Shown one piece after another: positions 4,946-52,612 of a stretch of DNA of 64,000 bases (the stretch's first letter is position 1; each line of letters opens with the position of its first letter). Origin of the DNA: Candidatus Bipolaricaulota bacterium (lineage in GTDB: Bacteria > Bipolaricaulota > Bipolaricaulia > RBG-16-55-9); NCBI GenBank assembly GCA_026982655.1, contig JALSGO010000083.1, forward strand, positions 30 to 64,029, given 5' to 3'. The position numbers and the translations under genes are program-made. The notes beneath the pieces are model-generated. The model did not search any database. It saw nothing but the letters and a program-made list of their open reading frames with translations, and had not been told where the DNA came from.

Positions 4946-6844
4946 GTGCTCCGTGAAGAAGCGGACGATCTCGTTATAGCATCGAACTTTGTTGGGGAAC
5001 TTCGTCACGTCGTGCCCCTCGTCCTCGAACACCAAGTATTCGACCTGCTTCCCCTGCCGACGGAGTTCCTCGACCAAGTCGCGCGACTCGGCTTCCACCA
5101 CCCGCGGGTCGTTCTTCCCCTGAATCACCAGTAGGGGGCACGCCAGACGGTGCAAATGCGTCTTGGGCGATCGCTCCACCAAGAAGTCGCGGTCGCGCTC
5201 GGGATCCCCTAGGATCATCCGGAAGTACGTCTGCCACGTCGGGGGGATGCGCTCCAAAAACGTTAAGAGGTTGTACGGCCCGAACATGTCGCAGGCGGCC
5301 TTCCACAATTCGGGGTGGCAGCCTGCGAGCATCAACGTCATATAGCCCCCGTAGGAGCGGCCCATGACGCCCGCACGCTCTAGGTCCAGCCTCTCGTCGT
5401 CCTTGAGGTGCTCGAAGGCGGCTACGTGGTCTAAGCGGTCCTTCCCGCCCCAGTCGCGGTCCACCTGCTTCATGTAGGAGAGCCCATAGCCGGAGCTGCC
5501 CCGGACGTTGGGGACGAAGACCGCAAAGCCCTTCAGCGTGAAGTACTGGATCAAGGGCATGGAGAACCAGGTGAAGTCGGGGCGCTCCTGGCTGTGGGGT
5601 CCCCCGTGGATGTAGAAGATCACGGGCCGTGGGCCTCGATACCCCAGCTGCTCCGAGGGCAGATACAACCGGGCGGAGACCCGCAGCCCGTCGTGGCTCT
5701 CATACGAGGCGTCCTCCCCCGGGGAGAGGAGCTCTTGAGGGATCCCCAGCACCCGCTCGCGGGTGTGCCGCCTCACCTCCCCGTCCTCCACGGTGTAGAT
5801 CTGCGCGGGCGAGGTGGCGGTGGAGAACGTCAGCACGAAGTGCCCGCTCCCCTTGTCGAAGTGCAAAGACTGGAGCACGCCGTCCCGCAGCGGGGCTTGG
5901 AGGCCGCAGATCGGGCGCTCGATGCGCAGTCGAAGGGCCTCTTCGTCGAAGGTCCCCTCGTAGACGTAGGAGCAGCCGTCGATGTTGTAATAAACGAGGT
6001 AGCGGTCGCCGTGGAGGCGCTCCAGGCCGGTAAGCTCCCCGAGGCCTCGGTGGAGGGTCCCCTCCACAGCCACGGGGCGCACGTCCTTGGGGTTCGCCAG
6101 CGGGAAGTACCCCAGGCCGTAGGTATCCTCGAAGAGGGAGGTCACAAAGAGCAGCCCCTCCCGCGTGAAGTGGCAGTCGTGGATCGAGTTTAAGGGGACC
6201 TCCTCGCCCGCTCGTCGTCCCTCTAAAGGCGTGCCGAAGAGGAGCTCCCGCCGTCGGGAGCCCTCCTCCCAGAGGTAGAGCACGTGATCCCCCGCCGTGT
6301 AGGAGTCCCGGAGGATGAGCTTTCGGTGATCCTCGCTTACGCCGTCCACGAGGTTGCCGTAGAGGCTCGTCCCCAGCTCTTCCCGTTTTAGGGTCTCGAG
6401 ATGGCAGCGGAACGTGAGGTGATTCGGGTCGGTGCGCGGGTCGACGGAGAAGTACGCTAGGTTGGCGTCGGGATCGCAGCGGAGGAGCCGGAGCTGTTGG
6501 CCCTCAAATTCTTCCCCGAAGAGCGGCTCGGGGAAGCCCCCCTCCAGGGGGATGACGTACGGCTGATAGTTCTCGTCCCCGTCGCGGTCGATCATCACCA
6601 CGATCTTCCCCAGTCGGGGGAAGACGGAGAAGGGCTTCCCGAACAGGAGGGCCGGGGTGTGCAGCGCCACGTCCCGGGGCAGCAAGGGCTCGGGGACGCT
6701 CCCGCCCTGGTCCATGGCGTACAGACTCAGGCGCCCGGAGAGGTCGCTGACGAAGTAGATGCGCTCCCCCACGAGCTGGGGGCTTACGAAGAGCCGAGTC
6801 GACAATAGGGCTTCTACAGATACAGACGTGCGGAGCGATGTCAT
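4934..6844 (-). CDS. S9 family serine peptidase (prolyl oligopeptidase / acylaminoacyl-peptidase type)
   Basis: N-terminal beta-propeller-like region, GRSYGGYM nucleophile motif, C-terminal LVIQGKNDPRV and EDEGHD. Start set at MTSLRT (ATG 6844), which has a GGGGAGAG RBS. Confidence 0.9.
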   Translation of the reverse strand: MTSLRTSVSVEALLSTRLFVSPQLVGERIYFVSDLSGRLSLYAMDQGGSVPEPLLPRDVALHTPALLFGKPFSVFPRLGKIVVMIDRDGDENYQPYVIPLEGGFPEPLFGEEFEGQQLRLLRCDPDANLAYFSVDPRTDPNHLTFRCHLETLKREELGTSLYGNLVDGVSEDHRKLILRDSYTAGDHVLYLWEEGSRRRELLFGTPLEGRRAGEEVPLNSIHDCHFTREGLLFVTSLFEDTYGLGYFPLANPKDVRPVAVEGTLHRGLGELTGLERLHGDRYLVYYNIDGCSYVYEGTFDEEALRLRIERPICGLQAPLRDGVLQSLHFDKGSGHFVLTFSTATSPAQIYTVEDGEVRRHTRERVLGIPQELLSPGEDASYESHDGLRVSARLYLPSEQLGYRGPRPVIFYIHGGPHSQERPDFTWFSMPLIQYFTLKGFAVFVPNVRGSSGYGLSYMKQVDRDWGGKDRLDHVAAFEHLKDDERLDLERAGVMGRSYGGYMTLMLAGCHPELWKAACDMFGPYNLLTFLERIPPTWQTYFRMILGDPERDRDFLVERSPKTHLHRLACPLLVIQGKNDPRVVEAESRDLVEELRRQGKQVEYLVFEDEGHDVTKFPNKVRCYNEIVRFFTEHLAP

Positions 6845-32480: not shown

Positions 32481-32500
32481 CCCACCCCACCGGGGGTGGG
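32481..32500. promoter_or_regulatory. CsoR-type operator 1: CCCACCCC-ACCG-GGGGTGGG
   Basis: Perfect 8-N4-8 palindrome 13 nt downstream of the -10 box. It is one of four copies in the window, and csoR lies in the operon. Confidence 0.7.
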
Positions 32501-35923: not shown

Positions 35924-36238
35924 ATGACCGAAGAACTACTGGTGTTGTTACAGCAGGGGAGCCTGGCGGCCCACCCGGAGGCGAAGCGCCACGCCCAGCG
36001 GCTCGTCCGCACCGTCATCGGCCACACCCAGGGCATCGAGCGGATGATCGAGGAAGAGCGATACTGCATCGACATCTTAAAGCAGATCGCCGCGGTGCAG
36101 GGGCTGCTGACCAAGCTGGCCCACACCGTAAGCGAAGCCCACATGAAACACTGCGTGCGACTGGCCATCGAGGAGGGCCACGGCGAGGAGGCCGTTGAAG
36201 AACTGATGGAGACGCTGAAATACCTGCGGAGCGTATAG
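35924..36238 (+). CDS. csoR: CsoR-family copper-sensing transcriptional repressor
   Basis: 104 aa DUF156 pattern: RLVRTVIGHTQGIERMIEEERYCIDILKQIAAVQGLL...HMKHC, containing the C-H-C Cu(I) ligand set. Confidence 0.88.
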   Translation: MTEELLVLLQQGSLAAHPEAKRHAQRLVRTVIGHTQGIERMIEEERYCIDILKQIAAVQGLLTKLAHTVSEAHMKHCVRLAIEEGHGEEAVEELMETLKYLRSV

Positions 36239-39424: not shown

Positions 39425-40000
39425 GTGATGAACGGGGAATCGAGGGACAAGGACCAAGGTCAGAATACGGAGATGCACGCGATCCGCCGCCGGGCGGCCT
39501 TCTTGAGCCGAGGCGGAGTGAGCCTGCCCCTCCTGATCATCGGGGTCCTCCTGGCCCTGGGGACGACTGCGGGCCTGGGGTATTTGCGTCTGGCGGGCCC
39601 ACCGGCGGCAGGCCCTCCGCGCATCGAGGTCACGCCGGAGCTCATCGAGTTCGGAGAGATCTCCCCCACCGAGAAGGCGGTCGTGGAGTACCGTGTGCGA
39701 AACGCCGGGGGAAGCCCGTTGGAGATCACCCGCGTGAGCACCTCGTGTGGGTGCACCACCGCCGAGGTCGGCAAGACGACGCTCCTCCCCGGCGAGACGA
39801 CTCCGTTGCGCGTCACCTTCGACCCCCAAGCGATGCGGGCCGAAGGGCTCAACGAGGAGGACATCTACCGGATCATCTTCCTAAGGAGCAACGACCCCGA
39901 GCGGCCGGAGGTTACCGTCGAGCTTCGCGGTCGCGTCCTGCCGTCGGACTCGGACTCGAACTCGAACTCGGAGCCGGAGTCTGCCGTCGAGGGGAGGTAA
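39425..40000 (+). CDS. DUF1573-domain protein (TM-anchored), copy b
   Basis: FGEISPTEKAVVEYRVRNAGGSPLEITRVSTSCGCTTA, with a Ser/Asp/Asn-rich tail. GGGGAGGGA RBS. Confidence 0.75.
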   Translation: MMNGESRDKDQGQNTEMHAIRRRAAFLSRGGVSLPLLIIGVLLALGTTAGLGYLRLAGPPAAGPPRIEVTPELIEFGEISPTEKAVVEYRVRNAGGSPLEITRVSTSCGCTTAEVGKTTLLPGETTPLRVTFDPQAMRAEGLNEEDIYRIIFLRSNDPERPEVTVELRGRVLPSDSDSNSNSEPESAVEGR

Positions 40001-40098: not shown

Positions 40099-42771
40099 AT
40101 GGCCAAGGTCAAAGACCCCGTCTGCGGGATGGAGATCGACGAGGAAGAGGCCGTCGCCTCCCACGTCTACGAGGGGCAGACGTACTCCTTCTGCTCCAAG
40201 GACTGCGAGAAGGAGTTCGTCGAGAAGCCCGAGTTTTATGTCAAGCCGGAGCCCGCCCGCTCGGCGACCACGGGCGTGGACGTCGAGAGCACGGAGCCGG
40301 TGCACGCCGAGCTCCCCCTGGCGGGCTTGGACTGCACCAGCTGCGTGGTGACCGTCGAGCGCACCCTGCGGGAGGTCCCCGGCGTGGAGAGGGCCCACGT
40401 CAACTTCTCGCTGGGGATCGCGCACGTCACCTACGATCCCAAGGAGGCGAGCGTCGAGGACGCCGTCCAGGCGCTCAAGAAGGCGGGCTACGACGTGGGG
40501 GCCGCCGAGATGCGGGTGCGCATCGAGGGGCTTCGCTGCGCCTCCTGTGTGGGCTTCATCGAGGAGGCCCTGCGGAAGGTCCCCGGCGTCTTGGAGGCCA
40601 CGGTGAGCCCCGGAACGGAGACGGCGGTCATCCGCTACGTCCCCGGGATGGTGAGTTTTCCGGCGATCAAGGAAGCGATCGAATCTACGGGCTACAAAAC
40701 GGTCCACCGCCTGGAGGAGGAGGAGCCGCCCGATCAGGAGGCCGCCGCCCGCGAGCGGGAGTACCGCCTGCTCATGCGCCGCTTCCTCTTCGCCGCCGTC
40801 GTCTCCGTCCCGGTGCTCCTTACGGCCTATCCCGAGTTCGTGCCCTTCTTGAGGGATCTTCCCCGGAGCACGATCCGGCTCATCTGGGCCTTCGACGCGC
40901 TGCTGACGCTGCCCGTGTTGTTGTGGTCGGGTCAGCGCTTCTTCACGGGCGCTTGGGCGGCGTTCAAGCACCACAGCGCGGACATGAACACGCTGATCGC
41001 GCTGGGCACCGGCGCGGCGTGGGCCTATTCGACGGTCGCGATCGCCTTCCCTCAAGTGTTCCCCGAGGGGACGGCGGAGCCCTTCTTCGACGTGGCCGCC
41101 GTGGTCATCGCCTTGGTCGTGTTGGGCCAAGCGCTCGAGGTCCGGGCCAAGGGGCGCACCAGCGCGGCGATCAAAAAGCTTCTCGACTTACAAGCCAAGA
41201 CGGCCCGCGTGGTGCGCGACGGGCAGGAGATGGACATCCCCGTGGAAGAGGTGCTCGTGGGCGACGTGGTGGTGGTCCGCCCCGGCGAGAAGGTGCCTGT
41301 AGACGGCGTGGTGATCGAGGGCTCCTCCGCGGTGGACGAGTCGATGATCACCGGGGAGCCGATCCCCGTGGAAAAAAATCCCGGGGATGAGGTGATCGGC
41401 GGGACGATCAACAAGACGGGGTCCTTCAAGTTCCGGGCGACCAAGGTGGGCAAGGAGACGGCGCTGGCGCAGATCGTCCAGCTCGTACAACAAGCCCAAA
41501 GCACCAAGCCCCCGATCGCCCGGCTGGTGGATGTGGTGAGCGGCTACTTCGTGCCCGCGGTGATGATCATCGCGGTGCTGGCGTTCTTGGTATGGTTTAA
41601 TTTCGGGCCGGAGCCGCGGCTGACCTTCGCCCTGGTGACCGCGGTGACCACGCTGATCATCGCCTGCCCCTGCGCGCTGGGGCTGGCCACCCCCATGAGC
41701 ATCATGGTCGGGGTGGGCAAGGCCGCCGAACACGGGATTCTCATTCGCAACGGCGAGGCCCTCCAAAAGGCCTCGAAGCTGGACACGATCGTGCTCGACA
41801 AGACGGGCACGGTCACCAAGGGGAAGCCCGAGCTGACCGACGTGATCGCCGCTGAGGGCTTTACAGAAGACGAGGTGCTCCGCCTGGCGGCCAGCGCGGA
41901 GCGGGCCAGCGAACACCCCTTGGCCGAGGCGATCGTCCAGGGCGCCCAGGCGCGCGGACTGGAGCTTGCGGACCCCGAGACGTTCAACGCCGTCCCCGGC
42001 CACGGGATCGAAGCCACGCTCGACGGCAAGAGAGTGCTCCTGGGCAACGTAAAACTCATGAAGCGCGAGGGCATCGACGTCGGCGGCCTCCGCGAGGCGG
42101 CGGAGCGCCTCTCCGACGAGGGCAAGACCCCGATGTACATGGCCGTCGACGGCCAAGCCGCGGGGCTGATCGCCGTGGCCGACACGATCAAGGAAGACTC
42201 CGTCGCGGCCATTCGGACGCTCCAGGAGCTGGGGCTGGAGGTCGTCATGCTCACCGGGGACAACCGCCGCACCGCCGAGGCGATCGCCCGCCAGGTCCAC
42301 ATCGACCGGGTCCTGGCCGAAGTGCTCCCGGAGCAGAAGGCGGCAGAGGTGAAGAAGCTGCAGCTCGAGGGCCGCAGGGTCGGCATGGTCGGCGACGGGA
42401 TCAACGACGCGCCCGCCCTGGCCCAGGCCGACGTGGGCTTCGCCATCGGGACGGGGACGGACGTGGCCATTGAAGCTGCGGACATCACGCTCGTGGGCGG
42501 AAGCCTCCGCGGGGTGGTCACCGCCATCGAGATCTCCAAGGCCACCATGCGCAACATCAAGCAAAATCTCGTGGGAGCCTTCATCTACAACACGCTGGGC
42601 ATCCCGGTGGCCGCGGGGGTCTTCTATCCCCTCACGGGGATGCTGCTGAGCCCCCTCATCGCGGGGGCGGCGATGGCGTTTAGCAGCGTGACCGTGGTGA
42701 CGAACGCCAACCGCCTGCGGCGGTTCCGGCCCCGGATCGTCTCCGACTTCGAGGAAGGAGGTACGACATGA
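40099..42771 (+). CDS. heavy-metal (copper) P1B-type ATPase with N-terminal YHS/TRASH domain plus two HMA-like domains
   Basis: [13 protein letters not shown]...[12 protein letters not shown] (YHS), LDCTSC and LRCASC HMA motifs, CPC, DKTGTVT and GDGINDAP. Confidence 0.93.
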
Positions 42772-43142
42772 TCGCGCAAATCGTGGTGAACGTCTTGGGG
42801 CTGCTCGCGATCGTCTGGATCGTCTGGTACTTCTGGATCTACGAGAAGAAGGGCGTCGTGGCCGCGGAGGCGGGCGGCGCTCAAGAAGTTCGCATTCGGG
42901 TCAAGGGGGGCTACGACCCCGACGTCATCGTCGTCCAGGCCGGAAAGCCCGTGAAACTCCACTTCTACCGCGAGGAGGAGGCGTCGTGCAGCGAGACGGT
43001 CGTCTTCCCGGACTTCGCCCAGTCGCTGAAGCTTCCGCCCTTTGAGACCGTCACCCTGGAGCTTCTGCCGGAGAAGCCGGGGGAGTACGAGTTCCACTGC
43101 CAGATGAACATGCTGCGGGGCAAGCTCATCGTGGAGGAGTGA
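42768..43142 (+). CDS. cupredoxin-fold (Cupredoxin_1-like) membrane-anchored protein 1
   Basis: TM anchor and C-terminal [19 protein letters not shown]. The ATG overlaps the copA2 stop (ATGA). Confidence 0.75.
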
Positions 43143-43190
43143 GCCCTACGTGCGATCCACCTCCACAGAGAACGAAAGGATCGAAAGGGC

Positions 43191-44582
43191 ATGGGCGTAG
43201 ACTTGACGTTCCTCGGCGCCGCCGGGACGGTCACGGGCTCCAAGTATTGGCTCTCGGCGGGCGGCAAAAACTATCTCATCGACTGCGGGCTCTTCCAGGG
43301 ACCGGACGAGCTGGAGCAGCTCAACTGGGAACAGCTTCCCATCGCCCCCGCGGAGCTGGACGCCGTGGTGCTGACCCACGGGCACCTCGACCACTCGGGG
43401 TACCTCCCGCGGCTTGCGAAGAGGGGCTACTCCGGGCCGGTCTACGCCTCGGAGGCCACCTGCGCGCTGCTCGAGCTGCTTTTGCCCGACTCGGGATACC
43501 TGCAGGAGGAGCACGCGGGCTACGCCAACCGCAAGGGCTACTCCCGCCACAAGCCCGCGCTTCCGCTGTACACCTACGACCAAGCGCTCGAGTCCCTAAA
43601 GCTCTTACGGCCCGTGAAGCTCGCGGAGCCCTTCGCCGTAGACAAACACCTCACGGTCACGATGCGCCCGGCGGGCCACATCCTGGGCTCCGCGATCGTA
43701 GAGTGCGAGCTTGATAATAAAAAGATCGTCTTCTCCGGGGACCTGGGCCGCTACGATCAGGAAGTGATGAAATCCCCAGCGACGGTGACGCGGGCCGACT
43801 ATCTGCTGGTCGAGTCGACGTACGGCGATCGGGAGCACGGCGAGGACCCCATCGAAGATCAGCTGGCCCCCGTGGTGAACGCCGCTGTCGAGCGCGGCGG
43901 GGCGCTTCTCATCCCGAGCTTCGCCGTGGGCCGCACCCAGCACGTCCTCTACTACCTGCGAAAGCTCCAAGACCAAAAGCGCATCCCCGAGGTGCCCATC
44001 TACGTGGACAGCCCGATGGCCATCGACGCGACGGCGATCTACTGCCGCTTCGGAGATGAGCTCAACCTCAACGTCAACCTGCTGATGGACGACGAAGCCT
44101 GCCCGCTGCGCTGCCGCGACACGCGCTTTACGCGGACGGTCCCCGAGTCGAAGCGGCTCAACGACGCGCCGGGGCCTCTTGTGATCCTCTCCGCGAGCGG
44201 GATGTGCACCGGCGGTCGGATCCTCCACCACCTGAAGCACCGCCTGCCCGACCCCAAGAACACCGTGCTCTTCGTGGGCTACCAGGCCCAAGGCACCCGG
44301 GGCCGCAGGCTCCTCGAGGGAGCCGACGAGATCAGAATTCACGGGATGACCGTCCCGGTGCGGGCGGAGATCGCCCAGATCGACGGCCTCTCCGCCCACG
44401 GAGACGCCCGGGAGCTGATGCGCTGGCTCTCCGGGTTCGAGCGGCCTCCCGAACAGACGTTCCTCGTCCACGGGGAGCCGCACGCCTCCCAAGCGCTGGA
44501 GGAGCGCATTCGGAAGGAGCTGGGCTGGGCGACCCACCGGCCCCGCTACGGCGAGACCGTCTCCTTGGAGGGCAGGGGATGA
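43191..44582 (+). CDS. MBL-fold beta-CASP family hydrolase (RNA-metabolising metallo-beta-lactamase)
   Basis: FLGAAGTVTGSKY, LTHGHLDHSG, and beta-CASP motifs through to SAHGD. Confidence 0.88.
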   Translation: MGVDLTFLGAAGTVTGSKYWLSAGGKNYLIDCGLFQGPDELEQLNWEQLPIAPAELDAVVLTHGHLDHSGYLPRLAKRGYSGPVYASEATCALLELLLPDSGYLQEEHAGYANRKGYSRHKPALPLYTYDQALESLKLLRPVKLAEPFAVDKHLTVTMRPAGHILGSAIVECELDNKKIVFSGDLGRYDQEVMKSPATVTRADYLLVESTYGDREHGEDPIEDQLAPVVNAAVERGGALLIPSFAVGRTQHVLYYLRKLQDQKRIPEVPIYVDSPMAIDATAIYCRFGDELNLNVNLLMDDEACPLRCRDTRFTRTVPESKRLNDAPGPLVILSASGMCTGGRILHHLKHRLPDPKNTVLFVGYQAQGTRGRRLLEGADEIRIHGMTVPVRAEIAQIDGLSAHGDARELMRWLSGFERPPEQTFLVHGEPHASQALEERIRKELGWATHRPRYGETVSLEGRG

Positions 44583-45329: not shown

Positions 45330-45374
45330 ACATGACGCAGATCATTGATCCCACCCCACGGGGGGTGGGATAAT
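45330..45374 (+). promoter_or_regulatory. 45-nt promoter/operator module, copy 1: ATGAC-N4-ATCAT, TTGATC(-35), CsoR-type operator 2 (45350..45369) and GATAAT(-10)
   Basis: CCCACCCC-ACGG-GGGGTGGG fills the 18-nt spacer. The module is colinear with 48290..48334. Confidence 0.65.
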
Positions 45375-46495: not shown

Positions 46496-47077
46496 ATGCG
46501 ACCACAGAGCAGTTGGGTTCACGTCGGTTGGATCACAGCGTTGCTGACGGTGGCGGTGGGGATCGGGCTTGCGGTGGGGCTTCCGGGACGGGCCCACGAG
46601 GGCGCGGAGGTGAGCGCCTATCCTACCACCGTGGCCCCGGGGGAGACGCTCTTCGTGGAGGGCGCGGACATCAACCCTAACGGCCCGATCGCCCTCTTCT
46701 TGGAGGGCGTAAAGGGCAAGTTCCGCCTGGGTCAGGTCCGGGGGGACGAGGACGGCGGGTTCAAGACGAGCGTGGCCCTCCCGCCGGATCTCCCGCCGGG
46801 GACCTATTTGTTGGTGGCCGTCGGGGCCAACGGGGAGAAGGCCACCTTCTCGGTGACGGTGGCCGCCGCGGTAAGCTCCCTCACCCAAGAGCCCAGGGAG
46901 CCCACGGACGCGCTCATGGAGCTGGACCGGTCAAGGTCCTCCGAGGAGTGGGCGTTCCTCGCCGTCGTGATCGGGCTGAGCCTGCTCCTGGGGGCGTGGC
47001 TGGCCCGCCCGGAACGGATGGTTGCACCTGCCTCTCCTTCTGCCTCCGCCGCCGAGCCCGACGGGAGCGGGCCTTGA
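46496..47077 (+). CDS. hypothetical exported protein with C-terminal TM anchor; predicted mature N-terminus is His
   Basis: Signal peptide ending LPGRA followed by HEGAEV, a beta-rich Ig-like middle, and the C-terminal helix WAFLAVVIGLSLLLGAWLA. GGGAGG RBS. Confidence 0.6.
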   Translation: MRPQSSWVHVGWITALLTVAVGIGLAVGLPGRAHEGAEVSAYPTTVAPGETLFVEGADINPNGPIALFLEGVKGKFRLGQVRGDEDGGFKTSVALPPDLPPGTYLLVAVGANGEKATFSVTVAAAVSSLTQEPREPTDALMELDRSRSSEEWAFLAVVIGLSLLLGAWLARPERMVAPASPSASAAEPDGSGP

Positions 47078-47103: not shown

Positions 47104-48309
47104 ATGAGCCGACGGGGGTACGAAGGAGTTTCGGTCGTGGGGGCCGGACCGGCGGGGCTTGTGGCGGCCCTCACGCTGGCCCGCGCAGGCGTCCCCGTCA
47201 CCGTCTACGAGAAGGGGCCGACGGTGGGCACCCGCTTCCACGGCGACTTTCAAGGCTTAGAGAACTGGTCCCGCGAGCTCGACGTCTTGGAGGATCTCCG
47301 GACGATGGGGCTTGCGATCAACTTCGCCGTGCAACCGCGCGACTCAGCGGACTTCTACGACGCCTGGGACCGGAAGTACGACATCAGGACCCGAGAGCCC
47401 CTCTTCTATCTGGTGCGCCGCGGGGGTGGGGAGGGGAGCCTCGACCGCGGGCTCTACGCCCAGGCCCGGGAGGCCGGGGTGCGGTTCCGTTTCCACACCA
47501 AGCTCGATCGGGTGGAGGGCCCGGCGATCGTGGCCACCGGCCCGCGCTACGCCGACGGCATCTGCGTGGGCTACCTCTTCGAGACGGACCTAGAAGACCT
47601 TACGGCCTGCATCCTCTCCCAGCGCCTGGCCCCCCGCGGCTACAGCTACCTCCTGGTGGCCGACGGTCGGGCGACGCTGGTGAGCTGCCACTTCGCCGAC
47701 CTCCCCCGCTGGCGGGATCATCTGGAGGCCACCGTCGAGGCCTTCCGAAAGCTTTACCGCTTTGAGATGCGGAACCCCCGCTTCTTCTCCGGCTACGGGA
47801 ACCTCTTCGCCCGGGGGCGCTTCCGCGACGGCCAAAAACTCTACGTGGGCGAGGCCGCCGGGCTCCAGGACGGCCTGTGGGGCTTCGGGATGCGCTTTGC
47901 CCTGCGCTCGGGATATCTGGCGGCCCAGAGCCTGCTCTCCGGCCAAGACTACGACGAGCTGGTCCGAAGGGAGCTTCTGCCGCACCACCGGGCGGGGCTG
48001 GTCAACCGCTTTTTCTGGAACCTCTTGAGCGATCGCATGTTGGCGTTCTTCCTGCGGCGGGCGGCGCGCTGGACCGACCTTCGGGGGCGGCTGCGCGAGC
48101 TCGCCGGGCCCCGTCCCTGGAAGGATCGGCTCTATCCCTTCATCCGGGGAGCCTGCGGCTGGCGGGCCCGCTACCGCGACGAGCGCTGCCTCCGGGAGGG
48201 GTGTCCCTGCATCGGGTGCGCGTGTCGGAGTCCTTCGCGTACGATCTCGAGCCCCTGCGTCTCTTGGGGAGCGGCTCGGTTCCGACTCGACATGACGCAA
48301 GTCATTTGA
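47104..48309 (+). CDS. FAD-dependent oxidoreductase (geranylgeranyl-reductase-like) with Cys-rich C-terminal tail
   Basis: VSVVGAGPAGLVAALTLARAG dinucleotide motif and the tail CLREGCPCIGCAC. GAGAGGAAGGAG RBS. Confidence 0.8.
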   Translation: MSRRGYEGVSVVGAGPAGLVAALTLARAGVPVTVYEKGPTVGTRFHGDFQGLENWSRELDVLEDLRTMGLAINFAVQPRDSADFYDAWDRKYDIRTREPLFYLVRRGGGEGSLDRGLYAQAREAGVRFRFHTKLDRVEGPAIVATGPRYADGICVGYLFETDLEDLTACILSQRLAPRGYSYLLVADGRATLVSCHFADLPRWRDHLEATVEAFRKLYRFEMRNPRFFSGYGNLFARGRFRDGQKLYVGEAAGLQDGLWGFGMRFALRSGYLAAQSLLSGQDYDELVRRELLPHHRAGLVNRFFWNLLSDRMLAFFLRRAARWTDLRGRLRELAGPRPWKDRLYPFIRGACGWRARYRDERCLREGCPCIGCACRSPSRTISSPCVSWGAARFRLDMTQVI

Positions 48310-48334
48310 CCCACCCCCTCTGGGGTGGAATAAT
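48290..48334 (+). promoter_or_regulatory. 45-nt promoter/operator module, copy 2: ATGAC-GCAA-GTCAT, TTGACC(-35), CsoR-type operator 3 (48310..48329) and AATAAT(-10)
   Basis: CCCACCCC-CTCT-GGGGTGGA occupies the -35/-10 spacer region. The -35 overlaps the stop codon of the FAD oxidoreductase gene. Confidence 0.65.
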
Positions 48335-48342
48335 AGAGTGAA

Positions 48343-48669
48343 ATGTCTGCAGAAGCGCGGCGCGGGATCGACAGCAGGTTCCGGGATCTCCTGTCCCTGT
48401 TGCTCATCGGGGTGTTGATCCTGCCGATGGCCGGCCCCTCCGGCCCCTTCACGGAGTCAGGGGCGTGTTCGGGGAACCCGCTTGAGGCGGGATGCGCTGC
48501 GATTCTGCATGTCGCCCGAGGCACGGCCGGTCATTGCCTGCCTTGTGGTGCCGTTGTCCTCCTGAGCTCTCCTCTGCCCTTTGCCTGGGCACTCGTAGGG
48601 GATTGGACTTCCGCCGGACTTGGCAGCCCGTTGGATCCGTCCTTTGTGCCCTGGCGTCCCCCTGCCTGA
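48343..48669 (+). CDS. hypothetical small membrane protein, Cys/His-containing, predicted leaderless
   Basis: The ATG lies 8 nt after the -10 box with no SD. One TM helix (LLSLLLIGVLILPMAG) and motifs CSGNPLEAGC and HCLPCG. Coding status is uncertain. Confidence 0.35.
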   Translation: MSAEARRGIDSRFRDLLSLLLIGVLILPMAGPSGPFTESGACSGNPLEAGCAAILHVARGTAGHCLPCGAVVLLSSPLPFAWALVGDWTSAGLGSPLDPSFVPWRPPA

Positions 48670-48784
48670 CCTCCGCTTCGTTCTTTTGCCCGTGCCCGCG
48701 GTCCTTTGAACGGGCCTTCGTCGGCCTAAGGGATCGTACGTATCTCAACTCCATCTGCAATCTGCACAAGGAGCAGGAGGTCGA

Positions 48785-49270
48785 GTGCCAATGCCTAAGA
48801 AGACGAACAAGGATCGGAAGGTCAAGCAGCAGCGTCTACTCCGGCAGGGGGCGGCCGGGGGCTGGCGGCCCTGGGCCTTTGGGGCCGTCACCCTCGGGGT
48901 GCTAACAGCCGCGTTTGGGCTGCTCTTGCCGAAGTTCTTCGCCGACGGTCCCGCAGCGGACGGGGAGGCCAACGTCATCCTGGTCGAAGCGGACATGGCC
49001 GGGCTCTATCCCAAGGAGATCCGGGTCAAGGCCGGGGAGCCCGTGACCATCCGCCTGCGCAGCTTGGACAACCGGTTCCACCTGGACGGGGGAGGCAAGC
49101 ACCAGTTCGCCATCGACGAGCTGGGGGTCAACATCATCGCTCCGCCGCTCGGCACGGCCGAGGCCACCTTCATCCCTACGGAACCGGGTGAATACGAGTT
49201 CTACTGCGACATCTGCTGCGGCGGGCGGGCCAACCCGACCATGGTAGGGAGGCTGATCGTCGAGCTATGA
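48785..49270 (+). CDS. cupredoxin-fold (Cupredoxin_1-like) membrane-anchored protein 2
   Basis: TM anchor and C-terminal PGEYEFYCDICCGGRANPTMVGRLIV. GGAGCAGGAGG RBS. An alternative ATG lies at 48791. Confidence 0.75.
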   Translation: MPMPKKTNKDRKVKQQRLLRQGAAGGWRPWAFGAVTLGVLTAAFGLLLPKFFADGPAADGEANVILVEADMAGLYPKEIRVKAGEPVTIRLRSLDNRFHLDGGGKHQFAIDELGVNIIAPPLGTAEATFIPTEPGEYEFYCDICCGGRANPTMVGRLIVEL

Positions 49271-50109
49271 GCGCTCTGACCCAGATCTCCGCGCGCAAGG
49301 TGGTGCTGGCCTCGGCGATCGCCCTGGGGGTGATCGCCGCCGCGGTCTTCTTGGGGCTGCGGCACCCCTCCGCCCAGGCCGTCCCGATGAGCCCGCTCCT
49401 CCCGGCGGTGACGCTGGGGACCATCGTGGTGGCCGGGATCGTCGACGGGATCAACCCCTGTGCCTTCACGGTGCTCCTACTGTTCGTTACTGCCCTGCTC
49501 GCGAGCCTGCAAACCCGCAGCGACGTCGGGATCGCCGAGAACGTGGGGGCCACGCGCGCCCGGATCGTGGGGCTCGGCTCCATCTACATCGCAGCCATCT
49601 TCCTCACCTACCTGGCGCTGGGGGCGGGGCTCTTGGTGACGGCAGATCTCTTCGTGCGGGAGCACCTGCCCGCCCGGATCGGGGCGCTGCTCGCCATCTT
49701 CCTCGGGCTGTGGATGCTCAAGGACTACTTCCTGCCCGGGTGGGGCTGGCGGCTGGGGGCCCCCAAGGTCGTGGGGGAGTGGGCCCGGCGCGCGGCCCGG
49801 AAGATGACCGTCCCGGCGCTGGCGCTCGGGGGCTTTCTCATCGGGCTCTGCACCGTGCCCTGCAGCGGGGCGGTCTACCTGGCGGTGCTGGCGCTCCTCT
49901 CGACCCAGCCGACCGCGACGGCCTTCGGGTACCTGGTGCTCTACAACCTGATGTTCATCCTCCCGTTGGTCGGGGTGCTGGCCGTGGCCGCGTCGCGCCC
50001 GGCGCTGAACCGCTTGGCCCGCTGGAACCTCCACCACCGGGAGGGGGTCCGGCTGGCCTTGGGGTCGGGTGTCGTGCTCATGGGGCTGTTCATCCTGTAC
50101 ACCGTCTAG
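49267..50109 (+). CDS. CcdA/DsbD-family thiol:disulfide electron-transfer membrane protein
   Basis: GINPCAF and CTVPCSG Cys motifs in TM helices, as in CcdA/DsbD/ScsB cores. The ATG overlaps the upstream stop (ATGA). Confidence 0.8.
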   Translation: MSALTQISARKVVLASAIALGVIAAAVFLGLRHPSAQAVPMSPLLPAVTLGTIVVAGIVDGINPCAFTVLLLFVTALLASLQTRSDVGIAENVGATRARIVGLGSIYIAAIFLTYLALGAGLLVTADLFVREHLPARIGALLAIFLGLWMLKDYFLPGWGWRLGAPKVVGEWARRAARKMTVPALALGGFLIGLCTVPCSGAVYLAVLALLSTQPTATAFGYLVLYNLMFILPLVGVLAVAASRPALNRLARWNLHHREGVRLALGSGVVLMGLFILYTV

Positions 50110-50159
50110 CTGGGAAACGGAGAACGGATCGAGAACCCAGGAGAAAGGAGGAAGCGGCG

Positions 50160-50480
50160 GTGAACAACCATCATGCGGGAGGCGGCAAGCCCTGCCACGT
50201 CGAGCGGCTGGAGAAAGAGGTGGACATGGAGGCGCTGCGCTCCACCCGGGTCAGCATCCTGGCGGTGACGGGGATGGGGTGTCCCAACTGTGCCCTGCGG
50301 GTGCACAACGCGCTCCTCGCCCTCCCCGGCGTCCATCGGGTGGACGTGGAGCTGGAGGCCGAGCGGGCGATCGTCTACTGGGACCCGACCGCCCTGCAGC
50401 CGGAGAGGCTGATCGAGGCGGTCTCCCAGGCTGCGGCGGGGACCCCTCACGACTACCGGGCGTACTTCGTGAAGCCGTAG
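50160..50480 (+). CDS. HMA-domain metallochaperone-like protein with His-rich N-terminus
   Basis: VTGMGCPNCALRVHNAL (GMxCxxC) and the N-terminal NNHHAGGGKPCH. GTG start 9 nt after AGGAGG. Confidence 0.75.
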   Translation: MNNHHAGGGKPCHVERLEKEVDMEALRSTRVSILAVTGMGCPNCALRVHNALLALPGVHRVDVELEAERAIVYWDPTALQPERLIEAVSQAAAGTPHDYRAYFVKP

Positions 50481-50642
50481 CGGAGCCACAGACGCAGAGC
50501 GGGGCTGCCCGGGGCCCGAGTCACCGTCGTCGCATCGGCTTCCACCTCCGCCCCGGGCAGCTCCCCGCCCTGCCCGCCGACGGCAGGGAGCTCCCACACA
50601 CGGGGAGAGAAGGAGAAAGGGAAGACACAAGGAGGGATTTCC

Positions 50643-51173
50643 ATGGACCTTAGGCTCATCGCCGTTGCGATCGTCTCCTTGGCGCTGGGGTTCCTCTTGG
50701 CCTCCGGCCTGCGCCCGGAGGTCGGGGTGGGGCCTTCGGAGGCGGAGCGGATCTTGGAGCGGCTGCGGCGCGAGATCATCCCGGAGGAGGGCAGCCCCAC
50801 GGGCTACGGGATCGCCTTCAGCGAGGCGGGCTACCAGACCCTGGTGGCCAAGAACCGCACACTCAGCGTCCCGCCCGAGCGGGCGGACGACTTCGAGGGC
50901 CTGGACATGAGCCTGCCCTGCTGTCCCTTCCAGAGCCCGAGCGTCGACGAGGCGAAGAACTGCCCGTGCGAGCACCATCAGGCGCTCTACGGGCTGGCCA
51001 AGTGGCTCCTCCAAGAAGACTATCCCGCAGACCGGGTCCAGGAGGAGGTGGCGCGCTGGAGCCGCTACCTCTTCCCCAAGGAGGCGCTGCGGGCGGAGAT
51101 GGAGCGGCGGGCGAAGCTCGATCCCGCCGTCGAAGCCGCCCTGGAGGAGCTCAAGGCCAAGGGGAAGTGCTAG
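50643..51173 (+). CDS. membrane-anchored Cys/His-rich hypothetical protein (LPCCPF...NCPCEHH)
   Basis: N-terminal TM helix and a clustered Cys/His motif reminiscent of the PCYCGC-motif family (recalled with low certainty). AAGGAGGGA RBS. Confidence 0.6.
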   Translation: MDLRLIAVAIVSLALGFLLASGLRPEVGVGPSEAERILERLRREIIPEEGSPTGYGIAFSEAGYQTLVAKNRTLSVPPERADDFEGLDMSLPCCPFQSPSVDEAKNCPCEHHQALYGLAKWLLQEDYPADRVQEEVARWSRYLFPKEALRAEMERRAKLDPAVEAALEELKAKGKC

Positions 51174-51227
51174 GCCGATTGGAACAGGGACGACCCGACG
51201 AGATCGAGGACGAGGAGGCGAGCGACG

Positions 51228-52541
51228 ATGATGGCATCCACAGCCGAACCGGCGGAAACGGAACCCCGACGGGGCGGGGGCCTGGGGAAGAGCCTTCGGG
51301 AGCGCTGGGCGCTCTGGACCCTGGGGCTGTTCGCCCTGCTGATCGTAGGGCTCTTCTTCTTCTACCGCCCGCCCATGGAGGAGAGCATCACGGGGGACAC
51401 CTTCCACCCCATCCGCGGGCTGATCGGCTTCCCCCACGGCCCGGGGGCCGCCGCGGAACCCTACGACGAGGAGGCCCTCGACCGCTTCGTGGAGGAGACG
51501 ATCGCGGAGACCTACGCCAAGGCGCGCATCGATCAGATCAAGCTCCTCCTCATGGGGCTCCTCATCGGCTTGATCCCGCTGGGCTATTACCGCGGTCGGT
51601 CGGACCGCCTAAAGCGCCTGGGACAGCGGGTCAACAAGATCTGGGACCCCTACACCTTCGGCACCGTCTCGGGGCTCCTTTTGGTGGGGGTGATCATCCC
51701 TACGGGGACGGTCCTCGGCCTCTTCTACAGCGCCGACGCGGAGAAGCTCTACGAGAGCATGGCGGGCATCGTGGGGAACCCCATCCTGAGTTTCCTGCGC
51801 AACCTCCACCTCTGGGCCTCGGAGGCGTTCTTGCTCTTCCTGTTCCTGCACACGGCCCGGATCGTCTCCACGCGGGCCTACTTTGCGGGACGCAAGCTCG
51901 TCTGGGTTCTGGGTGTCGTGCTGCTTGTGATCAGCTGGGCGACCTTCCTGATCGGCACCTTCATCCGGGGGGACCAGGAAGCGTTTGAGGCCTGGGTCCA
52001 CATGATGGCCCTCATCCGCTTCATCCCCCTCGTCGGGGACCCGATCGCCGACTTCTTCTCCGGCCCCTTCGCCGTCATGCGGCTGTACGTCTTCCACATC
52101 GTGATCACCACCATCGCCTTGCTGCTGATTCTGGCACCCCACGTGCTGATGCAGAAGGTGTACGTCCACGTGCAGCGGCGCTGGAGGGCGGCCCTTCGCT
52201 ACACCCTGGGGCTTACGGCCCTGATCGCGGTCCTCAGCCTGCTGGTGCCCGCCCCCTTCCTGGCGGAGCCCTACCACGACCTGGAGATCACCAAGCCACC
52301 GTGGCCCTATTACTTCCTGTACGCCTGGGAGAACATCGGCGGCGCGGTGAGCATGATCTGGTCGCCGCTGCTCATCCTGGTGCCGCTGCTTCTGCTGCCG
52401 TACGCGCTGGAGCAGCTGCCACTCGCCCGCCGGACCGCCCAACGGGTGGGCGACTGGGTCTTCTACGGCGGGGTCCTGATCACCTTAGGGCTGAGCTACT
52501 GGGTGGCCGCCTCGGGAATTGTGGCCCACGTCTTCGAATGA
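51228..52541 (+). CDS. divergent cytochrome b-like protein, paralogue 2, with N-terminal extension of about 130 aa
   Basis: RNLHLWASEAFLLFLFLHTARI (H-x13-H), YVFHIVITTIALLLILAPHVLM (H-x14-H), and KPPWPYYFLYAWEN. Confidence 0.8.
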   Translation: MMASTAEPAETEPRRGGGLGKSLRERWALWTLGLFALLIVGLFFFYRPPMEESITGDTFHPIRGLIGFPHGPGAAAEPYDEEALDRFVEETIAETYAKARIDQIKLLLMGLLIGLIPLGYYRGRSDRLKRLGQRVNKIWDPYTFGTVSGLLLVGVIIPTGTVLGLFYSADAEKLYESMAGIVGNPILSFLRNLHLWASEAFLLFLFLHTARIVSTRAYFAGRKLVWVLGVVLLVISWATFLIGTFIRGDQEAFEAWVHMMALIRFIPLVGDPIADFFSGPFAVMRLYVFHIVITTIALLLILAPHVLMQKVYVHVQRRWRAALRYTLGLTALIAVLSLLVPAPFLAEPYHDLEITKPPWPYYFLYAWENIGGAVSMIWSPLLILVPLLLLPYALEQLPLARRTAQRVGDWVFYGGVLITLGLSYWVAASGIVAHVFE

Positions 52542-52553
52542 GGAGGGCCGGAC

Positions 52554-52582
52554 TTGACAACCCTCCCCGGATGGGGTACAGT
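52554..52582 (+). promoter_or_regulatory. promoter TTGACA-17-TACAGT heading the MMPL2 string
   Basis: Consensus -35 at 52554..52559 and -10 at 52577..52582. Confidence 0.55.
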
Positions 52583-52592
52583 GAGACCATAT

Positions 52593-52612
52593 CCCACCCC
52601 AGGTGGGGTGGA
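52593..52612. promoter_or_regulatory. CsoR-type operator 4: CCCACCCC-AGGT-GGGGTGGA
   Basis: Same 8-N4-8 palindrome, 11 nt downstream of the -10 box and 7 nt upstream of the MMPL2 start region. Confidence 0.65.

Follow-up and report, generated by a model that had tools for sequence, protein, structure and literature searches.

We analysed a 64,000-nucleotide (nt) stretch of a Candidatus Bipolaricaulota bacterium genome (contig JALSGO010000083.1, positions 30 to 64,029; hereafter the window, with a G+C content of 67%) for a group of forward-strand genes that encode a cupredoxin, termed cupredoxin-2 (48785..49270), a membrane protein assigned to the DsbD/CcdA superfamily (49267..50109), an HMA protein (50160..50480), and a 176-amino-acid (aa) Cys/His protein, apparently extracytoplasmic and anchored by a transmembrane (TM) helix or a lipid (50643..51173). 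A preliminary description had treated these four genes, at 48785-51173, as one copper-thiol cassette; the genes lie where it placed them and carry all the motifs it quoted (NPC, VPCS, NNHHAGGGKPCH...GMGCPNC, LPCCPF, and NCPCEHH), and the TGA of cupredoxin-2 shares an ATGA (49267-49270) with the ATG of the membrane-protein gene, as it had noted. The unit itself is larger, reaching on the same strand from a sigma-70-type promoter found by a promoter scan (48306..48334; TTGACC-17 nt-AATAAT) through the first open reading frame (ORF) of the transcript, which encodes a 108-aa, probably secreted small Cys protein (48343..48669; with homologues in the related loci L010 and L014), to a cytochrome b-like membrane protein encoded by the last gene (51228..52541; Pfam Cytochrome_B, 3.5e-18), which is syntenic in the same two relatives.

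The coding frames of the cassette were distinguished by their G+C content at third codon positions (GC3, 0.86-0.96), and this bias, a membrane protein with more than 2000 close homologues and the kept gene order show that they are not chance ORFs; the HMA gene starts with GTG, 7 nt past an AGGAGG. As no convincing terminator was found inside the cassette or before the cytochrome b gene, the intergenic gaps of 115 nt and 162 nt had no Rfam match at E<=1, and the 50481-50642 gap folded no better than shuffled sequence (z = -0.68), the unit is predicted to run through the cytochrome b gene, 3' of which the next promoter and operator follow at 52554-52611. The interval first described would thus form the middle of a six-gene, CsoR-controlled operon (48343-52541).

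The spacer of the promoter is filled by operator 3, CCACCCCCTCTGGGGTGG (48311-48328, forward strand), and transcription is predicted to start just 5' of the 108-aa ORF. A palindrome search of the window recovered four CsoR-type operators (operators 1-4 at 32482-32499, 45351-45368, 48311-48328, and 52594-52611), with seven strand matches to the family CCACCCC-N4-GGGGTGG at these four loci versus 0.43 expected by chance. The promoter scan returned three sigma-70-like sites versus 0.5 expected, each located at an operator, so that three of the four operators lie within or directly after such a promoter. CsoR sites have been described as G-tract pseudopalindromes (PMC3902906), and the core of operator 4, CCACCCCACCTGGGGTGG, equals the published CsoR binding site of Thermus thermophilus and is close to the cso operator of Mycobacterium tuberculosis (PMC10318464). 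The window also contains a Cu-type CsoR gene (35924-36238), flanked by genes for a CopA ATPase and an MMPL transporter, whose product has the Cu(I) ligand spacing C-x24-H-x3-C (H at +25, C at +29). Judged from sequence, operator 3, which the preliminary description had recognised upstream of the cassette, is a genuine CsoR-type site, making copper control of the operon very likely.

Pairing of the cupredoxin and membrane-protein genes

We surveyed 80 genome loci with homologues of the membrane protein, 78 of which held enough upstream DNA to judge the pairing, and in all 78 a cupredoxin-2-type gene abutted or overlapped the membrane-protein gene upstream. A reciprocal survey of 80 metagenome loci, seeded from cupredoxin motifs and with enough DNA in 68 cases, found the membrane-protein gene directly 3' of the cupredoxin gene in 68 of 68. 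Three unfused distant relatives, each from its own cluster at 50% identity and matching the family profile at E 1e-54 to 1e-66, were all paired alike, and their pairs sit in copper-type neighbourhoods. By conserved peptide patterns the membrane protein is present in at least 328 species-level genomes, in addition to thousands of metagenomic homologues; its carriers are mostly Chloroflexota (Anaerolineae), with Candidatus Fraserbacteria and an unclassified metagenome-assembled genome as the nearest, and further carriers belong to other uncultured groups. Leptolinea sp. HRD-7 (L021) is a cultured organism that has the pair.

The other genes of the operon accompany the pair far less regularly. 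The HMA gene shares its operon in 24 of the 80 genome loci (~30%), usually 5' of the cupredoxin gene, and lies directly upstream of the cupredoxin gene in 10 of 67 metagenome loci, while the family of the 176-aa protein was found in 2/80 and 3/80 loci (~3%), the small ORF in 1/80 and cytochrome b in 9/80. In the close relative L014 a CsoR operator (5828-5845) separates the membrane-protein gene from the HMA gene and splits the cassette into two transcription units there. The four-gene cassette, real as a set of genes in the window, therefore fails as a conserved unit, and the core of the system is an obligate cupredoxin/membrane-protein gene pair.

The preliminary description had seen no thioredoxin-like partner, and a phmmer search of the 64-kb window with E. 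coli TrxA (E<1) likewise found no thioredoxin-like ORF. A thioredoxin-like gene occurs anywhere in the locus in 6 of the 80 genome loci, never adjacent to the pair, and across the window and 160 related loci no thioredoxin-like partner adjoins the module. The proposed kinship with Scs-type systems fell at this point, because no ScsC/ScsD-type thioredoxin partner is present.

The pairing also bears on whether the membrane protein could be a housekeeping CcdA, a general protein of cytochrome c maturation or disulfide isomerisation that lies in the copper island by chance. Joint Genome Institute (JGI) pipelines call its homologues 'cytochrome c biogenesis protein CcdA', and some of these homologues have weak matches to the DsbD_TM model. 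Such a role, which the preliminary description had raised as an alternative to its own proposal, is not borne out and seems very unlikely, because the pairing with one specific cupredoxin is absolute, a CsoR operator heads the operon, CXXCH motifs are absent from all 23 island genes and no ResA/TlpA-type partner gene is present in the window; in addition, no Ccs/Res genes were seen in the island, and the window protein had no match at E<=1 among NCBIfam models, including those for CcdA. These findings contradict the pipeline name.

The membrane protein and its cupredoxin partner

In the membrane protein a signal-anchor helix, whose last residues are AQA, precedes six TM helices, with TM1 predicted to run from outside to inside and three Arg/Lys-rich loops predicted to be cytoplasmic by the positive-inside rule. 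In the alignment of its close family, D60-G-I-N-P-C65 in TM1, C195-T-V-P-C199-S-G in TM4, H133, and H256 are invariant, and H33 and H257 are conserved in at least 90% of the sequences, with H33 and H133 predicted to lie at the outer face and H256 and H257 at the inner face. The only Pfam hit of the window protein is SfLAP at 23.1 bits, below the cutoff of 35, whereas 13 of 31 close homologues match DsbD_TM at E<=1 (best E 1.5e-7).

An exhaustive profile search yielded 3042 relatives, among which we considered 104 full-length representatives with both TM motifs and counted as an extension any N-terminal addition of at least 120 residues. An exported N-terminal domain was present in 85 of the 104, behind a signal peptide in the examples inspected; in 78 of these 85 it has a single CxxC, which is CPHC in eight, and the CxxC is conserved in at least 90% of the 85-relative alignment. 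In the same alignment nothing in the TM part is invariant except the Pro-Cys found in both TM1 and TM4 and an Asp in TM1. Pfam models recognised in the N-terminal extensions were Thioredoxin (10), Glutaredoxin (8), the immunoglobulin-like (Ig-like) DUF1573 (7), DUF411/CopG-like (3), and others, and those recognised in the TM parts were DsbD_TM (41 of 85) and DsbD_2 (4). One relative, P0212, reaches the family profile at E 3e-44 and also passes the DsbD_TM cutoff (30.8 bits versus 27.1). P0174, one of the fusions, shares 43% identity with the window protein across 247 residues.

This transitive homology, the domain fusions of the relatives and the invariant cysteines place the membrane protein, as judged by sequence, in the DsbD/CcdA superfamily. 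Of the preliminary assignment as CcdA or DsbD, the superfamily stands, and either name fails at the curated thresholds. The combination of an exported CxxC thioredoxin-fold domain with a two-cysteine membrane core is the DsbD/ScsB design, and the family-wide invariance of only two Pro-Cys cysteines and one Asp reads as the DsbD signature. The cupredoxin-paired branch lacks the fused domain, through loss or because it never had one, and its partner is encoded separately instead.

Like DsbD, CcdA and ScsB, the membrane protein has a six-helix core with an essential-looking, Pro-preceded Cys in TM1 and in TM4 and the same predicted orientation. Its relatives share with DsbD and ScsB the exported N-terminal CxxC domain, and weak DsbD_TM matches recur among them. 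In contrast to DsbD and CcdA, it falls below the DsbD_TM and NCBIfam CcdA thresholds, with SfLAP scoring equally well or better, has an extra Cys in TM4 (CxxxC) together with conserved His, lacks a thioredoxin-fold partner in favour of an invariant cupredoxin and shows no link to cytochrome c maturation.

In a separate observation, the gene at 39428-40000, 5' of CopA2, encodes an Ig-like DUF1573 protein that is TM-anchored and carries an STSCGCTT motif. In other lineages DUF1573 is fused to, or overlaps the start of, homologues of the membrane protein (L094 195-641; P0181, P0194, and P0203), so DUF1573 proteins may form one more class of clients for these transporters.

Cupredoxin-2 belongs to Pfam Cupredoxin_1 (PF13473; 49.8 bits versus a cutoff of 27, E 3.8e-13). 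A strongly basic N-terminal tail precedes its single TM helix, which is followed by acidic residues and the cupredoxin domain, whose soluble part spans about residues 55-161, and because of this basic tail the domain should face outward under the positive-inside rule. H99, H106, C141, C144, C145, and M153 are invariant in alignments of 82 and 17 sequences, forming the signature H-x-DGGG-x-H...YCDICCGG-x-NP-x-M, in which all three cysteines are clustered (C141-x2-C144-C145), and the cupredoxins of the three distant relatives, ~40% identical to that of the window, keep H-x-DGGG-x-H...YCD[IT]CCGG[KR]xNPxM exactly. Three clustered thiols at the outer face would be exactly what copper oxidises. We compared this site with the type-1 (His, Cys, His, Met) and CuA (His, C-x3-C, His, Met) ligand sets and found neither the type-1 (blue) nor the CuA set in cupredoxin-2, since no His follows the Cys loop; the site resembles the CuA loop (H, C-x3-C, M), but with the second His missing and one extra Cys.

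This resemblance is the basis for a different role, in which a cupredoxin-2 with a CuA-like electron-transfer site would act together with cytochrome b and Rieske proteins under the same control to oxidise Cu(I) or reduce Cu(II) outside the cytoplasm, and the membrane protein would serve only as its assembly reductase, as TlpA and CcdA do for CoxB. The domain does match the CuA domains of NosZ and CoxB (E 3e-7 to 4e-4) and keeps the H...C-x3-C...M spacing, two cytochrome b genes and a Rieske gene are likewise under CsoR operators, and cytochrome b occurs in 9 of the 80 module loci. These CuA matches lie far below the family cutoffs, however, the site departs from CuA at the second His and the extra Cys, and most module loci lack cytochrome b, so we regard a redox copper centre as unlikely.

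A distant cupredoxin-2 homologue (L178 3410-3997) has an extra, cytoplasmic N-terminal CxxC...H..H tail of zinc-ribbon-like appearance and lies near a TRASH-domain regulator whose type takes its name from an HVO protein of haloarchaea, a hint that Archaea may carry the module too. The window encodes a second cupredoxin, cupredoxin-1 (42768-43142), beside CopA2, whose stop codon it overlaps (ATGA). Its short uncharged N-terminus, TM helix and following basic residues give a charge pattern opposite to that of cupredoxin-2, and it probably faces the cytoplasm. Its C...HCQMNM resembles the CupA-like C...CxMxM of the Cu(I) chaperone CupA of Streptococcus pneumoniae, and genes of this type adjoin CopA in 11 of 80 related loci.

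CupA is a membrane-anchored, cytoplasm-facing Cu(I) chaperone of cupredoxin fold with a C...CxMxM motif, encoded next to CopA. Cupredoxin-2 is like CupA in being a cupredoxin-like protein with a single TM anchor, Cys and Met as candidate Cu(I) ligands and an operon under a copper repressor, but unlike CupA it is predicted to face outward, its site consists of H, H, CxxCC, and M, and a membrane protein serves as its dedicated partner; the description of CupA fits cupredoxin-1.

A candidate reductant supply to cupredoxin-2

Taking these observations together, we propose, with a probability of roughly 0.5, that the pair constitutes a dedicated reductant pathway in which the membrane protein keeps the Cys-rich cupredoxin reduced under copper stress. 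The two genes would form the functional unit, a module that copper induces by way of CsoR. In it, the membrane protein would act as a thiol-disulfide transporter: reducing equivalents of the cytoplasm, with thioredoxin as the presumed donor, would travel by way of its cysteines in TM1 and TM4 and be delivered directly to the outward, membrane-anchored cupredoxin encoded just upstream. The C141-x2-C144-C145 cluster, otherwise oxidised by copper, would thereby be kept reduced, and the reduced cysteines together with H99, H106, and M153 would bind Cu(I) at the outer face of the membrane, possibly in a CuA-like or thiolate-bridged site, so that extracytoplasmic copper may be sequestered or handed over. 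The cytoplasmic HMA protein would be a co-induced, CopZ-like Cu(I) buffer, and the 176-aa Cys/His protein and the small Cys protein may be lineage-specific extra clients or copper binders.

The cupredoxin is favoured as the client because its adjacency to the membrane-protein gene is invariable in both directions (78/78 and 68/68), its domain is predicted to face outward and its three clustered cysteines are invariant, and the suggestion in the preliminary description that the cupredoxin may be the substrate has thereby gained strong comparative backing. The broader proposal made there, that the system keeps periplasmic thiols or Cu sites reduced, is backed by the copper control, the superfamily and the client, and the transfer of reductant itself would be the predicted step that joins them. 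DsbD-type transporters feed thioredoxin-fold proteins, and a cupredoxin as a new client class for a DsbD-superfamily transporter would most likely extend this known principle.

Several points weigh against this proposal. The window membrane protein did not match Pfam DsbD_TM (PF02683) even at E<=10, and the family profile did not recover CcdA from the PDB sequences, where profile searches with the membrane protein and the 176-aa protein gave nothing meaningful for either. We know of no DsbD-family protein that reduces a cupredoxin directly, without a thioredoxin-fold intermediate. Electron transfer, moreover, needs neither the conserved His on both faces nor the CxxxC of TM4 nor a recurrent, dedicated HMA subfamily, all of which suit metal handling, and the fused domains of the relatives include CopG-like copper binders, so that the fusions do not tell a redox role clearly apart from a metal relay.

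The same features would fit a Cu(I) relay, in which the membrane protein would move Cu(I), and not electrons, along a thiolate-lined path where flanking His assist the TM1 and TM4 cysteines, the HMA protein would donate or accept Cu(I), and the cupredoxin would receive or deliver it outside, a CopZ-transporter-chaperone chain analogous to MerP/MerT or CopC/CopD. An xPC motif in mid-helix is likewise a mark of P1B-ATPase metal sites, and several metal-ion exporters belong to the LysE/DsbD superfamily. The HMA subfamily, with its extra N-terminal Cys/His motif, shares the operon in 24/80 loci and lies directly 5' of the cupredoxin gene in 10/67, which would agree with a donor or acceptor role, as would the resemblance of some fused domains to the copper binder CopG/DUF411. 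However, ~70% of the modules have no HMA gene in the operon, so this protein is not obligatory, and Cu(I) export is already covered, with a CopA ATPase within 6 kb of the module in 35 of 80 loci and two copies in the window island. The fusion of relatives to classical thioredoxin and glutaredoxin CxxC domains, CPHC among them, points instead to thiol-disulfide chemistry, and neither the His nor C195 is invariant family-wide, as only the two Pro-Cys cysteines are. We consider a Cu(I) relay, the main rival to the reductant supply, unlikely.

More generally, the pair, with the HMA protein where present, may constitute a previously unrecognised transmembrane copper-handling machine, either a Cu(I) conduit from HMA through the TM cysteines to the cupredoxin or a thiol-powered extracytoplasmic copper redox enzyme, a possibility that we hold as doubtful and put forward tentatively. 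If true, metal transfer or metal redox chemistry, and not protein disulfide reduction, would be the use to which the DsbD scaffold has been put.

Comparison with two further systems places the proposed reductant supply. In rhizobia, TlpA and CcdA reduce the CuA cysteines of CoxB before metallation. There, as proposed here, a C-x3-C of a cupredoxin fold would be reduced at the outer face before copper arrives, with reductant coming through a CcdA/DsbD-type protein, but in that case the thioredoxin TlpA, soluble or anchored, mediates and the cupredoxin is a subunit of a respiratory oxidase, whereas the cupredoxin of the module stands alone, is very likely copper-induced and lacks the second CuA His. 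In the Scs systems, ScsB and ScsC act with CueP as the Cu-binding client under a proteobacterial copper or envelope-stress regulator, while the module here is under CsoR. Scs of Salmonella and Proteus shares with the module a copper-linked, DsbD-type reductase thought to keep an extracytoplasmic, Cys-dependent copper binder reduced. The module nevertheless lacks ScsC, known from the Scs copper-tolerance system (PMC5524982), as well as ScsD and ScsA, shows no detectable sequence-level orthology and has a membrane protein without N-terminal periplasmic domains. Its client would be a TM-anchored cupredoxin in an apparently direct chain, and its lineages are Chloroflexota, Candidatus Fraserbacteria, and others.

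No description of the module was found in the open-access literature searched. If the proposed reductant supply is true, the pair would add a client class to those known for DsbD-type transporters and a further layer to copper defence outside the cytoplasm, one that is copper-controlled and widespread. The pairing offers a clean two-protein system in which to study how metal-binding thiols stay reduced outside the cytoplasm, and the fused relatives could reveal whether CopG-like domains depend on a built-in reductase.

Accessory proteins and the wider copper regulon

The HMA protein matches Pfam HMA (51.1 bits versus a cutoff of 24.8, E 1.7e-13) and carries VNNHHAGGGKPCH...GMGCPNC, the latter forming the GMGCPNC loop. 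Its N-terminal Cys/His motif is KPCHVE in the window and ENC[HY]VEP elsewhere, its C-terminus reads AGxxxxHxYRA in the window and AGNDGRHxYRA in most relatives, and these subfamily motifs were found in 24 loci. Because it falls below the cutoff of all CopZ and MerP equivalog models (for example, 50 versus 85-95), it appears to represent a separate, module-specific subfamily and not CopZ proper. It has no signal peptide and is classed as cytoplasmic. A MerT/MerP-like mercury system was also considered and ruled out, given the lack of a signal peptide in the HMA protein and an operator of the copper-CsoR type.

The 176-aa protein is all-alpha, with an N-terminal TM helix and LPCCPF...NCPCEHH, and its family keeps LPCC, NCxCxHHQAL, and a C-terminal Cys invariant. 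It had no match in Pfam at E<=10 or in NCBIfam. Membership in the PCYCGC family, a comparison suggested in the preliminary description, was rejected, as neither the window protein nor any of 22 members of its family matched the PCYCGC model (PF13798) at E<=1, and the motifs are instead LPCC and NCxCxHH. Its nearest fold appears, by a weak resemblance, to be that of CcmH, a thiol oxidoreductase of the periplasm that serves cytochrome c maturation and has a three-helix domain with the active site LRCxxC. From its distribution it seems to be a rare accessory and not a core part. This protein and the HMA subfamily are two families without Pfam models.

The small ORF at the head of the operon starts ~9 nt past the -10 box, which would make it nearly leaderless, and encodes GC...H...HCLPCG...PWRPPA. 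An ORF in the equivalent place in L010 shares 42% identity with its C-terminal half (E 4e-12), and this half is conserved in L014 as well. We class it as only a probable gene because its GC3 of 0.71, versus 0.86-0.96 in the neighbouring genes, is atypically low for the genome.

The four operators of the window define an unusually broad copper regulon, which holds a Rieske protein and CopA1, two cytochrome b genes, an FAD (flavin adenine dinucleotide) oxidoreductase, MMPL/RND-like transporters with LolA-like proteins, and a cyclopropane-fatty-acid synthase, and the operators are kept in the relatives L010 and L014. This make-up suggests respiratory and envelope-lipid remodelling during copper stress. 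In the operator-2 operon, the FAD-dependent oxidoreductase (47110-48309) has a geranylgeranyl-reductase-like N-terminus and a dense C-terminal Cys cluster, CLREGCPCIGCAC. Co-transcribed with cytochrome b-1 under operator 2 is a 193-aa protein (46496-47077) that has no family match and contains a signal peptide, a beta-rich middle, a C-terminal TM helix, and zero cysteines. In several copper islands a gene for a metallo-beta-lactamase of the beta-CASP/RMMBL RNase type recurs beside CopA or cupredoxin genes, with copies at 43143-44582 in the window, at 3788-5179 in L004, and at 1078-2469 in L010.

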